From an uncultured Gammaproteobacteria bacterium (lineage in GTDB: Bacteria; Pseudomonadota; Gammaproteobacteria; Xanthomonadales; Rhodanobacteraceae): 64,000 nt of DNA. The stretch covers positions 112,924 through 176,923 of the forward strand of contig CAVYAZ010000002.1 of NCBI GenBank assembly GCA_963766595.1, given 5' to 3'. Under the pieces are notes generated by a model that was not told the origin of the DNA, ran no database searches, and worked only from the letters and a program-made list of their open reading frames with translations. Shown one piece after another: positions 44,012 to 53,416 of this stretch (position 1 is its first letter; the number at the start of each line of letters is the position of its first letter). The position numbers were made by a program, and so were the translations under genes.

Positions 44012-44680
44012 CTACCTGCTGGCCAGTTGGTCGCCGTGCTTCTGCTTCAGCGAATCGAGCAGCGCGAGCGCCTGCGCGCGGCGGCCGGCGTCGGCGTCCT
44101 CGCGTCCGGGACGCGGCGGCGCGGCGAGTGCGTGGTTGAGGTATTCGGCCGAACGCGCGTACTGACCCTGGTCGGCAAGGAAATCGGCATAGAAATAGTT
44201 CGCGTCGATGTCGTTCGGCGCGATGGCGATCGCTTTCTCGAAGCATTTCATCGCTTCCTTCTTGTCGCCAAAGCCGATCGGCCATCCGGGCACCTTCGCG
44301 TACAGGCTGCCGAGCGAGCTGTAGATCGAGCCGTTCATCGCATTCGGATCGATCGCTTCGGCGGCGAGCAGAAGATCGCGCGATTGCTTGGCCTTGTGCA
44401 GCGCGCCCAGGCCGCTCTCGGTGCTGGCCGCGCTGGCCAGCACGATCGCTTCCCAGATCAGCGGCTCGGCCTTGCCCGGAAACGATTCGACGACCTGTTG
44501 CGACTTTGCAATGACGGCGCTGAATGCAGCGTCCCTGTCGGCGGCGGGGGTCTGATAGGAAACGCGCGCCCAGTCGTGCGCGACGTCCGCGATCGCCTGG
44601 TCGAATGGTGGCGTTGCCGCCGATGCGGCGATGCTGGTTGACATGAACAATACGGATGCAGCGAGTGATTTGCGAAACAT
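44012..44680 (-). CDS. Exported TPR-like protein
   Basis: Signal peptide; helical repeats; LGSLYAKVPGWPIGFGDKKEA; last gene of the operon. Confidence 0.8.
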   Translation of the reverse strand: MFRKSLAASVLFMSTSIAASAATPPFDQAIADVAHDWARVSYQTPAADRDAAFSAVIAKSQQVVESFPGKAEPLIWEAIVLASAASTESGLGALHKAKQSRDLLLAAEAIDPNAMNGSIYSSLGSLYAKVPGWPIGFGDKKEAMKCFEKAIAIAPNDIDANYFYADFLADQGQYARSAEYLNHALAAPPRPGREDADAGRRAQALALLDSLKQKHGDQLASR

Positions 44681-44708
44681 GACGGATTCCTCGGTTGGGG
44701 ATGGAAGC

Positions 44709-50282: not shown

Positions 50283-52043
50283 GTGACCATACGCAAGACG
50301 CTACTCGTCGCGTTTCTGAGCGTCGGCCTGATTTCCGCCATAGTTCTGACCAGCTTGGCGTTTGTCAAGGCGCGCGCTGCGCTGCGGGCGGAAATCGAAC
50401 GCAACGTTGCGCTCGAGGCCGCCGGAATTGCCGCCGACATCGACAAGATGATGTTCGAGCGTTTGCAGAACGCGGCGATCTGGAGCCGGCTCGACATCAT
50501 GCAGGACCTGCAGGTGCGCGACGTCGACAAGCGGCTGTCGCGATTTCTTGCCGACCTGCATGACGGCTATCGCGACGTTTACGACAATCTGTCGTGCAGC
50601 GATACCCAGGGACGCATCGTCAGCAGCAGCGATGCGGCGCTGATCGGCCAGGAGGTGACCGCGGCGCCGGCGTGGCTGCGTGCTTCATTGTCCGGTGCCG
50701 ACGTTGAGTTGGAACTGCGCGAGGGCAAGGGCGAAGTCGGCGTGCTCATGCAGGTTGCGTTGACATCCGCATTCAATGGCCAGCCGCTCGGGTCGCTGCG
50801 CCTGCAGCTCGATTGGGCCGAGATCCATGACGTGCTCGATCGCGCCAGTGCCGACGGCGCCCGCATCGTGGCGGTGCTCGACCATGATGGCCGGCTGATC
50901 GCCGCGTCGCAGAATCTTCGTCGCCGCAGCTTTCTGCTCGGCGACAGGCTGGCCGATTGGCGCCTGCTTGCCGGGTCCGTCAGCGAACGCCCCGGTGCGC
51001 CGCTGGTCGACTCCAGCGTGATCGTCGGCGCGGCCGGCTCGCGCGGCTACGCGCAGTTCGCCGGCTTCGGCTGGACCACGCTGATCGTCCAGCCGGTGGA
51101 CGTCGCATTGGGACCGGTCCACAGCATGGCCTCGATTTTTCTGGCGCTGCTTGGGCTGATCGCGTTGTTCACGCTACTTACGGCAATCTGGGTGAGCCGC
51201 GAGATTGCCCGGCCGATCGTCGCGCTTACCGGGTTCGCACGCGGCTACATGCGCGACAAGGTGCTGCAGGTGCCGGCAAGCGAGGGCGCCGGCGAGGTGC
51301 GCGAACTGACCGATGCCTTCGTGCAGATGGTCCGCGACATCGACCTGTCGCAGCAAAACCTCGTGCGCGCGTCGAAGCTGGCGGTCGTCGGCGAGATGTC
51401 CTCGGCGATCGCGCATGAAGTGCGCACGCCGCTCGGCATTATCCGCTCATCGGCGCAGATGCTGCAGCGCGAGTCGGGGATCAGCGACGAAGCGCGCGAG
51501 CTGGTCGGATTCATCGAGAGCGAAACCGAACGGCTCAACCGCCTGGTTTCGGCGATGCTCGACACGGCGCGCCCACGAACACCGTCGTTCGCAACGGTGG
51601 ACCTGCATGAACTGATCCGCAGCAGCGTGGCGATGCTCGCGGCCCTCGCCGACAAGAATCAGGTACGGGTAACGACGCGTCTGCTAGCCTCCACGGCGGT
51701 CATCGAATGCGACGAGGAACAAATGACGCAGGTGCTGCTCAATCTGCTGATGAATGGCCTGCAGATCCTGCGCAACGGCGGGCGCATCGAACTGGCCACG
51801 CAGGACGAGGGCGACCAATTGCGCATCGAGATCGCCGATGACGGACCCGGCATCGACGCGGCCGAGCGCGCGCGCGTTTTCGAGGCATTTTTCTTCAAGC
51901 GCGAGGGCGGCATTGGCCTGGGTTTGGCGATCGTGCAGCAGATCATCCGCGCCCATGGCGGCGACATCGAAGCGGCCGACAGCCCGCTCGGCGGCGCGAT
52001 GTTCCGCATCCATTTGCCGCGCAACCGGCCGGAGGCCGCATGA
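50283..52043 (+). CDS. Sensor histidine kinase (TM - Cache-like periplasmic domain - TM - HAMP - HisKA - HATPase)
   Basis: AHEVRTPL H-box, QVLLNLLMNG, DDGPGI, GIGLGLAIV. Confidence 0.92.
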   Translation: MTIRKTLLVAFLSVGLISAIVLTSLAFVKARAALRAEIERNVALEAAGIAADIDKMMFERLQNAAIWSRLDIMQDLQVRDVDKRLSRFLADLHDGYRDVYDNLSCSDTQGRIVSSSDAALIGQEVTAAPAWLRASLSGADVELELREGKGEVGVLMQVALTSAFNGQPLGSLRLQLDWAEIHDVLDRASADGARIVAVLDHDGRLIAASQNLRRRSFLLGDRLADWRLLAGSVSERPGAPLVDSSVIVGAAGSRGYAQFAGFGWTTLIVQPVDVALGPVHSMASIFLALLGLIALFTLLTAIWVSREIARPIVALTGFARGYMRDKVLQVPASEGAGEVRELTDAFVQMVRDIDLSQQNLVRASKLAVVGEMSSAIAHEVRTPLGIIRSSAQMLQRESGISDEARELVGFIESETERLNRLVSAMLDTARPRTPSFATVDLHELIRSSVAMLAALADKNQVRVTTRLLASTAVIECDEEQMTQVLLNLLMNGLQILRNGGRIELATQDEGDQLRIEIADDGPGIDAAERARVFEAFFFKREGGIGLGLAIVQQIIRAHGGDIEAADSPLGGAMFRIHLPRNRPEAA

Positions 52044-53416
52044 AGGCTCGGCAGATACTCGTCGTGGACGACGAGCCGAAGATGCGGCGCGTGCTCGAGA
52101 TCATGCTGCAGAAGATGGGCCATCGCGTGTTCAGCGCCGGCAACGGCCGCGAAGCACTGACGGCGTTCGCGGCGAACACGATCGACCTCGTCATTGCCGA
52201 CCTGCGCATGCCGGAGATGGATGGCCTCGAGCTGCTTGCCAGCCTCCGCGCGCAGGAGTCCGACGTCCCGGTCATGGTCATCACCGCGCACGGCACGATC
52301 GAGACTGCCGTGGCGGCGATGAAGCACGGCGCGTGCGACTACATCCTGCGGCCGTTCGACATCGAGGCGCTGGAGCTGGCGGTCGAGCGCGCGCTGAACA
52401 GCGCCGAGCAGGCACGCCATGCGGCGTTCCTGCGCCAGGAAATCGATCGCGGCTGGGATGCATTCATCGGCACCAGCGAACCGATGCAGGCCGTGTACGA
52501 GTTGATCCGCCGCGTCGGTCCGAGCAAGGCGTCGGTGCTGATCACCGGTGAGACCGGCACCGGCAAGGAACTCGCGGCGCGCGCCTTGCACAACGCCTCG
52601 CCACGGCACGACAAGCTGTTCGTGCCGATCAATTGCGCGGCAATCCCGGTCGACATTCTCGAAAGCGAATTGTTCGGCTACAAGAAGGGTGCGTTCACCG
52701 GTGCGCTGAAGGATAGGATCGGCAAGTTCGAGCTGGCCGACGGCGGCACGATCTTTCTCGACGAGCTGACCGAAATGCCGCCGGCGTTGCAGGCCAAGCT
52801 GCTGCGCGTGCTGCAGGAAAGCACGATCGAGCCGCTCGGCAGCAATCGCGTCATCAACCTCGACATTCGCGTCATCGCCGCGACGAACCGGGATCCGCTC
52901 GAATCGATACGTTCGGGCAAGCTGCGCGAAGATTTGTACTACCGGGTCAATGTCGTGGCGATCCATCTGCCACCGCTGCGCGAGCGCGTGGCGGATATTG
53001 CCGGACTCGCCGAGCACTTCGTGGCCAAGCACGGCGCGGGCAACGCATCGGCGCATCTTCCCGAGAAGGTGCTCGAGCGGCTACGCAACTATCCCTGGCC
53101 CGGAAACGTTCGCGAACTCGAAAACATGATCGAGCGCGCGTTGATCCTGTGCGGCGACGCGCCGCTGGACGAATGCCATTTCCTGCTCGAATCGATCAAC
53201 GGTGCCGAAGCGTCCGCTTCGGCTGCGGCGGCGACGGAATCCGTGCGCGTGGCGCCGTTGAACCAGGCCGTCGATGAACTCGAAGCCCGCCTCATCGATG
53301 CGGCGCTGGCGCAGGCCGAGGGCAACAAGGCGCGGGCGGCCGCGCTGCTCGATATCAGCGAACGGACGCTGTGGTACAAGCTCAAGAAGCTGCGCCCTGA
53401 TCAGGACGGCAACTGA
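52040..53416 (+). CDS. sigma54-dependent response regulator (NtrC family)
   Basis: REC domain (VVDDE, DLRMP), GETGTGKE, GAFTGA, WPGNVREL, Fis-type HTH. Confidence 0.96.
   Translation: MKARQILVVDDEPKMRRVLEIMLQKMGHRVFSAGNGREALTAFAANTIDLVIADLRMPEMDGLELLASLRAQESDVPVMVITAHGTIETAVAAMKHGACDYILRPFDIEALELAVERALNSAEQARHAAFLRQEIDRGWDAFIGTSEPMQAVYELIRRVGPSKASVLITGETGTGKELAARALHNASPRHDKLFVPINCAAIPVDILESELFGYKKGAFTGALKDRIGKFELADGGTIFLDELTEMPPALQAKLLRVLQESTIEPLGSNRVINLDIRVIAATNRDPLESIRSGKLREDLYYRVNVVAIHLPPLRERVADIAGLAEHFVAKHGAGNASAHLPEKVLERLRNYPWPGNVRELENMIERALILCGDAPLDECHFLLESINGAEASASAAAATESVRVAPLNQAVDELEARLIDAALAQAEGNKARAAALLDISERTLWYKLKKLRPDQDGN

Follow-up and report, generated by a model that had tools for sequence, protein, structure and literature searches.

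The window analyzed here is a 64,000-nt stretch of contig CAVYAZ010000002.1 from assembly GCA_963766595.1 (forward-strand positions 112,924–176,923; all positions below are counted within the window). Nine genes within 44012–53416 make up the locus of interest: a five-gene operon headed by a gene of the T_hemolysin family, genes for a porin-like barrel and a small exported protein, and genes for a sensor histidine kinase and an NtrC-type activator. The proposal that this dedicated two-component system controls the operon, here via a sigma-54 promoter and a defined enhancer, is well supported by comparison of the locus with its relatives.

Gene Organization of the T_hemolysin Locus

Domains were assigned to the genes by Pfam and NCBIfam, and the GAFTGA motif and signal peptides were seen in the translations (Table 1). 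Read from upstream to downstream on the minus strand, the order is porin-like barrel, small protein, T_hemolysin protein, adenylate-forming ligase, heme-oxygenase-like enzyme, short-chain dehydrogenase/reductase (SDR), and tetratricopeptide repeat (TPR) protein, with the kinase and activator genes divergent on the plus strand. A first-pass annotation of this DNA had described a five-gene operon of these families, and all five are present. The operon is compact, with 4-bp overlaps between the T_hemolysin and ligase genes and between the heme-oxygenase-like and SDR genes, the other gaps being 16 and 28 bp. The porin and small-protein genes share the strand of the operon and lie upstream of the sigma-54 promoter, the small-protein gene beginning 8 nt past the porin stop codon; the kinase and activator genes overlap by 4 bp (52040–52043). 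The setting is chromosomal (G+C content ∼65%), with SpoT, RecG, citrate synthase, PBP1A, and PilQ encoded in the neighborhood. Among sequencing runs, the sequence was found in soil and rhizosphere metagenome DNA runs only.

Table 1. Genes and predicted regulatory elements of the T_hemolysin locus, in window coordinates
Feature	Position	Strand	Match or remark
Exported TPR protein, TatT/BstC kind	44012–44680	−	TPR Pfam matches
SDR	44709–45515	−	adh_short 178.3 bits
Heme-oxygenase-like diiron-type enzyme	45512–46171	−	Haem_oxygenas_2 PF14518, 92.5 bits
Adenylate-forming enzyme (acyl-CoA or acyl-AMP ligase type)	46188–47675	−	AMP-binding 169.2 bits, AMP-binding_C_3 33.7 bits
T_hemolysin-family protein, predicted acyltransferase	47672–48427	−	PF12261, 184.6 bits
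Sigma-54 −24/−12 element TGGCACGGCTGTTGCG	48465–48480	−	1 mismatch to TGGCAC-N5-TTGCW
IHF-like site GATCAGGCAATTG	48509–48521	−	2 mismatches vs WATCAANNNNTTR
Upstream activator site, palindrome CTGCAA-N16-TTGCAG	48589–48616		Overlaps small-protein gene stop codon
Small exported single-lobe PstS-like protein, 161 aa	48605–49090	−	Weak PBP_like_2 match
Outer-membrane β-barrel with signal peptide	49099–50184	−	BBP2 16.7 bits, Porin_O_P 15.6 bits
Divergent intergenic region, kinase/porin genes	50185–50282		Presumably non-sigma-54 promoters
Sensor histidine kinase	50283–52043	+	HisKA 58 bits, HATPase_c 81.6 bits, dCache_1 28.9 bits
NtrC-type sigma-54 activator	52040–53416	+	Response_reg 109.9 bits, Sigma54_activat (PF00158) 232.4 bits, HTH_8 54.1 bits

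Two Layouts of the Operon in Related Genomes

A T_hemolysin alignment scanned against species-representative genomes gave >540 matches, from which 80 loci were fetched; these were then queried with the nine proteins of the window. The window genome is not alone in having this gene set. The layout seen here, with the activator and kinase on one strand and the porin, small protein, and operon on the other, is shared by about 35 non-redundant loci, found in Thiobacillus, Rhodocyclaceae, Niveibacterium, Propionivibrio, Rudaea, Dokdonella, Rhodanobacter, Novimethylophilus, Sulfuriferula, Hydrocarboniphaga, and Panacagrimonas. Among those that can be cultured are Thiobacillus thioparus DSM 505 (L020), Niveibacterium terrae (L012), Novimethylophilus kurashikiensis (L036), and Hydrocarboniphaga daqingensis (L045). 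In 33 other loci, from Pseudomonas, Halopseudomonas, Thauera, Silanimonas, and Thiodiazotropha, the TPR gene is instead followed on the same strand by two regulatory genes, one encoding an OmpR-type regulator of 220 aa with a Trans_reg_C domain and the other a kinase whose sensor domain is 2CSK_N; these loci are without the porin, the small protein, or a sigma-54 site.

The operon order T_hemolysin–ligase–heme-oxygenase-like–SDR–TPR is kept in most of the 80 loci, the last four genes being found in 73, 68, 70, and 64 of them, respectively, with some loci truncated by a contig edge. A sensor kinase gene of either type adjoins the operon in 67 of the 80. Unbiased clustering of all open reading frames (ORFs) around the operon in the 80 loci returned as conserved neighbors the nine genes and the OmpR-type regulator and kinase and none further; the conserved set includes no gene for an inner-membrane transporter, for a carrier protein, or for a regulator of the LuxR type. 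The five-gene operon appears to be an ancient and mobile unit that comes with a two-component system of its own.

The sensor side of the window is nearest to Rudaea-like Gammaproteobacteria (L005; 83% identity for the activator, 82% for the kinase, and 72% for the porin), and its T_hemolysin protein is nearer to the Thiobacillus versions (60–63% vs 53%, in a comparison with L005 and L014). Either output genes have been exchanged or T_hemolysin evolves faster in reduced loci. Upstream of the operon and divergent from it, a Pseudomonas locus (L084, 9201–9926, minus strand) and a Vibrio plasmid (L088, 6221–6769, minus strand) each have a gene for cytochrome b561; as a candidate partner it was rejected, being not conserved across the loci.

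A Conserved Promoter and Enhancer-Type Sites Upstream of the Operon

The near-perfect −24/−12 promoter that had been proposed for the operon is borne out by its conservation. The element, TGGCACGGCTGTTGCG, lies between the small-protein and T_hemolysin genes, 37 bp before the T_hemolysin start codon. It is the sole match in the window at ≤1 mismatch, where ∼2 are expected by chance, and at ≤2 mismatches the window has 30 matches vs 30.6 expected; as a stand-alone statistic, the site is thus no rarer than chance and not significant. It is convincing because of its position and its conservation across genomes. One site with ≤2 mismatches is found just upstream of T_hemolysin in 34 of the 35 non-redundant loci that share the window layout, the remaining locus (L049) having a candidate with three mismatches, vs none of 30 OmpR-type loci. 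The promoter and the NtrC-type two-component system therefore occur together, as the first-pass annotation had implied in describing a self-contained circuit.

Alignment of the upstream regions of the related loci revealed a second element, the palindrome CTGCAA-N16-TTGCAG. Its exact form is present as a single copy in the window (0.17 expected at ≤1 mismatch) and at the equivalent position in 26 loci, one copy each, with an extra copy near a PAP2 gene in L025; 31 of 34 loci match the relaxed form YGCAA-N16-TTGCR perfectly. The center of the palindrome is ∼121 bp upstream of the −24 element or, in a subset, ∼99 bp upstream. Between the two lies a site resembling that of integration host factor (IHF), WATCAANNNNTTR, which is present with ≤1 mismatch in 25 of 34 related loci and is centered 35 bp upstream of the −24 element, or 23–24 bp in the same ∼99-bp subset. 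The alternative spacings thus differ by ∼22 bp for the palindrome and ∼11 bp for the IHF-like site, which correspond to whole helical turns. A near-palindrome, CTGCAA-N16-TTTCAG, at 55551–55578 on the plus strand (1 mismatch) has no −24/−12 element within reach and was taken as a chance occurrence.

As judged from their sequences and spacing, the palindrome, the IHF-like site, and the −24/−12 element would constitute the classical arrangement of an enhancer, a bend, and a sigma-54 promoter. The association of this set with the adjacent NtrC-type activator, and the conservation of its parts in position and helical phase, provide strong evidence that the activator drives the T_hemolysin promoter, which bears out by comparison the earlier suggestion that the adjacent two-component system controls the operon. 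In locus L016 the porin and small protein have been lost, and the kinase, activator, palindrome, and promoter are retained.

The 30 OmpR-type loci carry a site of another kind. In L084, L052, L062, and L047, for example, and also in L087 and L088, a direct repeat, CTTAAG-N5/6-CTTAAG, with the variants CTTCAG-N6-TTAAGAA and ATTAAT-N5-GTTAAT, lies 35–70 bp before the T_hemolysin start codon. Direct repeats are the kind of site used by OmpR/PhoB-type regulators. With a sigma-54 site beside the NtrC-type activator and a direct repeat beside the OmpR-type regulator, the type of site in front of the operon fits the neighboring regulator in both layouts.

Sigma-54 control of the porin and kinase genes themselves was considered and rejected, there being no site before either: no −24/−12 match was found in the kinase/porin divergent region of the window or of nearly all of 40 related loci. 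The same region of the window (50185–50282) holds no match to the sigma-70 consensus, and scans for sigma-70 promoters and terminators returned nothing above chance.

The T_hemolysin Protein and Its Vibrio Relatives

The score of the T_hemolysin protein against PF12261 far exceeds the gathering score of 27, and the family comprises ∼2100 clusters at 50% identity. The AlphaFold2 model of the protein (pLDDT 84.4, with the N-terminal ∼55 residues disordered) was compared with the Protein Data Bank (PDB) by Foldseek. The best match is TofI (E = 3.8e-7), followed by LasI, MesI, FeeM, BjaI, RpaI, and EsaI, with generic GNAT proteins after them; these fold matches span E values from 3.8e-7 to 3e-4, target-normalized TM-scores of 0.52–0.65, and identities of 10–16%, and the FeeM chains (2g0b) align with E = 1e-5 and a target-normalized TM-score of 0.65. 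Model and structure search thus agree with the earlier placement of this family among LuxI/FeeM-like folds. Neither a Pfam Autoind_synth match for the protein at E ≤ 0.01 nor a PDB sequence match with the family profile was found, which indicates that T_hemolysin shares the fold of LuxI but not membership of the LuxI family. Twenty-three residues are invariant among 114 T_hemolysin sequences, and no signal peptide is visible in the translation.

The T_hemolysin protein therefore has the same fold as FeeM and the LuxI-type synthases of N-acyl homoserine lactones (AHLs). For the coenzyme A (CoA)-dependent synthases BjaI, RpaI, and MesI, a further parallel may be drawn, in that the acid-activating ligase of the operon could likewise supply the acyl donor. 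In contrast to LuxI-type synthases, the window operon has no nearby LuxR-type receptor or carrier protein.

The family takes its name from Vibrio, where the "thermostable hemolysin" gene heads the same five-gene operon. Annotated plasmids carry it, as in Vibrio parahaemolyticus pLH214-1 (L088, 6932–11083) and in a plasmid of Vibrio sp. HDW18 (L087, 7007–13543), where the operon is followed by a two-component system with regulator and kinase; one Vibrio copy resides on a conjugative 90-kb plasmid. In V. parahaemolyticus, VP1729 (hemolysin), VP1731 (iron-containing redox enzyme), and VP1735 (two-component protein) have been grouped by STRING-type association, and in V. cholerae, VCA1110, named "DthC", adjoins the delta-thermostable hemolysin gene (dth region, VCA1110–VCA1111). 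The genes for delta-VPH and delta-VFH, the VP1729–VP1735 region, and the dth region thus share with the window both the Pfam family and the operon order, whereas the Vibrio operon has an OmpR-type regulator and is without the sigma-54 promoter, the porin, and the small PstS-like protein.

The Vibrio literature treats the first gene of the operon as encoding a protein toxin, and many genome papers on Vibrio and Aeromonas count this gene among the virulence factors. FeeM-type enzymes in Escherichia coli make membrane-active N-acyl amino acids, so a small molecule could explain the hemolysis caused by cloned genes. The alternative, that the T_hemolysin protein is secreted and damages membranes directly as a hemolysin, its neighbors being accessory or unrelated, has behind it the family name and the work on delta-VFH of Vibrio fluvialis, a T_hemolysin-family protein that was found in culture supernatant, binds phosphatidylserine and phosphatidic acid, and is cytotoxic as a purified recombinant protein (PMC11033176). 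Taken at face value, that cytotoxicity would make the first protein a toxin and not an enzyme. A secreted toxin is difficult to reconcile with the missing signal peptide, with a confident GNAT/LuxI/FeeM-fold model and so many invariant residues, and with a gene that always comes first beside those of three cytoplasmic enzymes, including in free-living sulfur oxidizers and methylotrophs as well as in Vibrio. We consider this explanation the least probable of those weighed here, with only a slight chance of being correct.

The Remaining Operon Proteins

The nearest models and structures of the adenylate-forming enzyme are fatty-acyl-CoA, feruloyl-CoA, and o-succinylbenzoate-CoA ligases, all distant. 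The SDR passes the NCBIfam equivalog NF006565 (308 bits vs a 238-bit cut-off), a model that has no functional name. PDB sequence searches with the ligase and the SDR returned generic relatives only.

The heme-oxygenase-like enzyme was previously annotated as a diiron enzyme, and both its PF14518 match and its residues agree. The complete 3-His/3-carboxylate set is kept in the pattern E...H, E, H-x3-D-x2-H; the corresponding ligands, E80, H83, E137, H168, D172, and H175, are invariant in 36 sequences and ≥95% conserved in 72. Family and ligand pattern are shared with CADD, UndA, BesC, SznF, and MboA. Among PDB sequences the best match is 3dde (1.1e-22), ahead of CADD (1e-5) and MboA (0.013); as 3dde has no assigned function, the type of reaction cannot be read from the nearest structure.

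The TPR protein has a visible signal peptide and no lipobox cysteine. Pfam TAtT is matched by 21 of 35 orthologues (best 5.4e-9) but not by the window protein at E ≤ 0.01, and the family profile, searched against the PDB, finds its best natural match in BstC (7t1s, 3.8e-9). The likeness to TatT of Treponema and to BstC of Methylococcus sterol transport, which are also exported TPR proteins, is one of size (∼220 aa) and of matches at the level of the family. Unlike in those systems, the conserved set contains no gene for a TRAP or RND partner, and the window protein lies far below the cut-off of the NCBIfam BstC equivalog (35 bits vs 350). The resemblance of the family to TatT and BstC points to a hydrophobic cargo in the periplasm.

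The Sensor Side of the Locus

The kinase consists of a first transmembrane helix (TM1), a periplasmic Cache-like domain, a second transmembrane helix (TM2), a linker of HAMP-like length, and HisKA and HATPase domains. The first-pass annotation had described it as a Cache/HAMP kinase. For the Cache part, the dCache_1 match of 28.9 bits is below the 45-bit cut-off, and orthologues have precomputed PF02743 matches. The HAMP part was not recovered, Pfam detecting none at E ≤ 0.01 in the whole kinase or in residues 289–405. The GTG start codon at 50283 is backed by homologues that align from residue 1. In the activator, which is made up of a receiver, an AAA+ sigma-54 interaction domain, and a Fis-type HTH, the strong Sigma54_activat match and the GAFTGA motif in the translation agree with the earlier reading of an NtrC-type protein with GAFTGA intact. 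Its nearest NCBIfam models are AtoC, NtrC, and LuxO, all under the equivalog cut-offs, and its orthologues, of 54–83% identity, occupy the same position in the window-layout loci.

NtrBC, AtoSC, ZraSR, and DctBD likewise pair a co-encoded kinase with a receiver–AAA+–HTH_8 activator in which GAFTGA is intact, and NtrC-family systems share with the window a palindrome ∼100–120 bp upstream, an IHF-like site between, and a −24/−12 promoter. Unlike these shared features, the palindrome sequence, the porin/half-PstS pair, and the target operon are not known from any other system and match none in the searched papers.

The barrel protein had been called a porin. Among 31 orthologues, 28 match BBP2 (best 7.6e-8) and 26 match Porin_O_P (best 3e-6), weak matches that uphold assignment to the porin superfamily; assignment to OprO/P is not upheld, the score of the window protein against PF07396, 15.6 bits, being below the gathering score of 20.9. 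No PDB sequence match was found for the protein. On these matches, it is probably a β-barrel in the porin superfamily that is distant from OprO/P and BBP2.

For the small protein, previously described as a periplasmic binding protein, the Foldseek search with the AlphaFold2 model (pLDDT 83.5) gave PstS phosphate-binding proteins as top matches. Export and PstS likeness are thus sustained; a full two-lobe binder is not, since ∼120 of the 240–320 PstS residues align and these cover one lobe only. The protein has two invariant cysteines, 483 homologues of ∼150 aa were found, and no ABC transporter is part of the conserved set in the 80 loci. Phosphate sensing, suggested by the resemblance to PstS and OprO/P, is a lead only. 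In the searched literature, a pair of a porin and a single-lobe PstS-like protein beside a Cache-like kinase appears to be an undescribed sensory accessory module.

The sensor proteins raise the question of whether the locus serves uptake and breakdown, with an external organic acid being imported by the porin and small protein, sensed by the kinase, activated by the ligase, and degraded or detoxified by the oxygenase, dehydrogenase, and acyltransferase. NtrC/AtoC-type systems with sigma-54 promoters often control organic-acid use, the kinase transmitter is nearest to AtoS in NCBIfam as the activator is to AtoC, and a ligase with an SDR is a common catabolic pair. An import function is hard to square, however, with a conserved set that has no inner-membrane transporter and a "binding protein" that is half of a PstS fold with no accompanying ABC transporter. 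The porin and small protein, moreover, stand outside the control of the sigma-54 promoter and do not occur in the OmpR-type loci, the acyltransferase fold of the first enzyme is a biosynthetic one, and the fifth protein is of the exported TPR lipid-carrier type. We therefore judge uptake and breakdown to be very unlikely.

Envelope Genes in Related Loci

Three loci, L005 (Rudaea), L025, and L037, have the sensor proteins closest to those of the window, with activators 75–83% identical. In these loci, T_hemolysin is directly followed by an orthologous GT9 heptosyltransferase-like gene (10788–12104, 10654–11895, and 10879–12096, respectively), and genes for the ligase, oxygenase, SDR, and TPR protein are lacking, so that the sigma-54 promoter would drive this reduced pair only. 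In L001 the GT9 orthologue (15217–16392) comes after the full operon. The GT9 protein is far under the NCBIfam heptosyltransferase cut-offs.

The same three loci carry a second exact palindrome with a −24/−12 element (TGGCAT-N5-TTGCT) on the minus strand, between the 3′ end of the activator gene and a gene for a PAP2 membrane phosphatase, at which it aims (L005, ∼4813–4923; L025, ∼4767–4869; L037, ∼4750–4851). The regulon in L005, L025, and L037 would thus comprise at least two promoters. In L001 and L034 the TPR gene has a PAP2 orthologue immediately after it in the same orientation, and in L029 one lies ∼2.5 kb further downstream; no NCBIfam or PDB match specifies the substrate of the PAP2 protein. 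The neighborhood in L001 and L005 further includes MlaA, an ArnT-like PMT_2 gene, and heptose-pathway genes.

Other Features of the Window

Elsewhere in the window, genes for a MoxR AAA+ ATPase, a DUF58 protein, and a long ORF with BatD domains stand in a row on the plus strand (34752–42177) and resemble a Bat/aerotolerance-type operon; the last of these, an ORF of 1196 aa at 38587–42177, is possibly several genes read as one. Just upstream, at 33582–34745 on the plus strand, one protein combines a cyclic-nucleotide-binding domain with an EAL domain (cyclic di-GMP phosphodiesterase). A 1383-aa mechanosensitive channel of the MscK type with an N-terminal SBP_bac_3 solute-binding domain is encoded on the minus strand at 16026–20177.

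Discussion

The explanation that we favor, with about even confidence, is that the locus is a two-component sigma-54 switch of a conserved operon that makes an acylated, lipid-like molecule for the envelope or the exterior. In the proposed mechanism, the kinase would receive a periplasmic cue via its Cache-like domain, and the porin-like barrel and PstS-like lobe would probably help that cue, itself probably environmental and not the product of the operon, to reach or engage the sensor. The kinase would phosphorylate the NtrC-type activator, which would bind CTGCAA-N16-TTGCAG ∼120 bp upstream of the −24/−12 element and, with the DNA bent at the IHF-like site, open the sigma-54 promoter before T_hemolysin. 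Of the enzymes then made, the adenylate-forming protein is predicted to activate a carboxylic acid, probably a fatty acid, the T_hemolysin protein to transfer the acyl group to an amine acceptor, and the heme-oxygenase-like diiron enzyme and the SDR to tailor the product by oxidation and reduction; the exported TPR protein may handle the product, which would be hydrophobic, once it is in the periplasm. An acylated and tailored molecule of lipid-like character is the most likely output in view of the modeled fold of the first enzyme, the conserved 3-His/3-carboxylate site of the third, the tight packing of the operon, and the families of the other proteins. The leaning toward an envelope or surface lipid comes from the PAP2 gene in the regulon of relatives, the GT9 partner, the TatT/BstC-like fifth protein, and the MlaA, ArnT-like, and heptose-pathway genes near the operon in L001 and L005.

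Several observations weigh against this explanation. Its chemistry is read from fold and family membership only, and the ligase, given the distance of its nearest relatives, is too generic for its substrate to be predicted. The envelope link comes from relatives, as the window has no PAP2 or GT9 orthologue, and an inner-membrane exporter is missing from the set conserved in the 80 loci. The IHF-like site of the window, with its two mismatches, is weak, and no RNA run in the sequencing-run search carries the window sequence. To these must be added the delta-VFH results described above.

An alternative that was raised in the first-pass annotation is a quorum-sensing-like autoinducer loop, in which a diffusible acylated signal returns via the porin, is sensed by the small protein or the Cache-like domain, and boosts its own synthesis. 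In its favor, the T_hemolysin protein has the fold of FeeM and of AHL synthases, and a kinase gene of either type adjoins the operon in most loci. The activator, whose conserved target is the synthase operon, scores strongly on the LuxO model although below its cut-off. Adjacency of synthase and kinase genes is typical of kinase-based signaling pairs such as luxM–luxN, cqsA–cqsS, and lqsA–lqsS. In the Vibrio circuits that run from LuxM/LuxN or CqsA/CqsS through LuxU to LuxO, a synthase gene similarly adjoins that of a membrane kinase and the output is LuxO-related, but the window kinase pairs directly with its activator, and the target is the synthase operon rather than small RNAs. The link from product to sensor is conjectural, and unrelated sensors, a periplasmic Cache-like domain in one layout and 2CSK_N in the other, would need to recognize one molecule. 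Nor would a lipophilic signal need a porin, and L016 does without the porin and small protein, as do the OmpR-type loci. A TatT/BstC-like carrier, a PAP2 phosphatase in the regulon, and a GT9 partner suit lipid handling better, and the Autoind_synth match expected of a LuxI relative is lacking. We regard such a loop as unlikely.

A broader and somewhat more doubtful version of this idea is that the T_hemolysin family is a third, unrecognized class of LuxI/FeeM-fold signal synthase, making a new kind of acyl signal, tailored by oxidation, for which each lineage would have its own two-component system as reader. The signal would then be served by a sigma-54-type system with the porin and half-PstS protein as co-receptor in soil and sediment Beta- and Gammaproteobacteria and by an OmpR-type system in Vibrio and Pseudomonas.

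On the favored explanation, a switch for an acylated, lipid-like product, the regulatory logic is standard. What appears to be undescribed in the searched literature is the enhancer, a hemolysin gene heading an operon of enzymes as a LuxI/FeeM-fold protein, and the two matched control systems. That literature assigns no product to the gene set, which figures there in virulence-gene lists, the STRING-type association, the naming of DthC, and one toxin paper, in keeping with what the first-pass annotation had stated.

The five-gene operon is found in hundreds of proteobacterial species. Its first protein has an AHL-synthase/FeeM fold, and the operon comes with a two-component system of its own and a promoter to match; together these two results make the question of its product directly testable. 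If the product is a lipid, the operon adds a regulated pathway for an envelope or surface lipid and revises a widely cited "hemolysin"; if it is a signal, it represents a new signaling chemistry. Should the signal-synthase reading be true, it would mean a widespread and undescribed form of cell-to-cell signaling, including in well-known pathogens.

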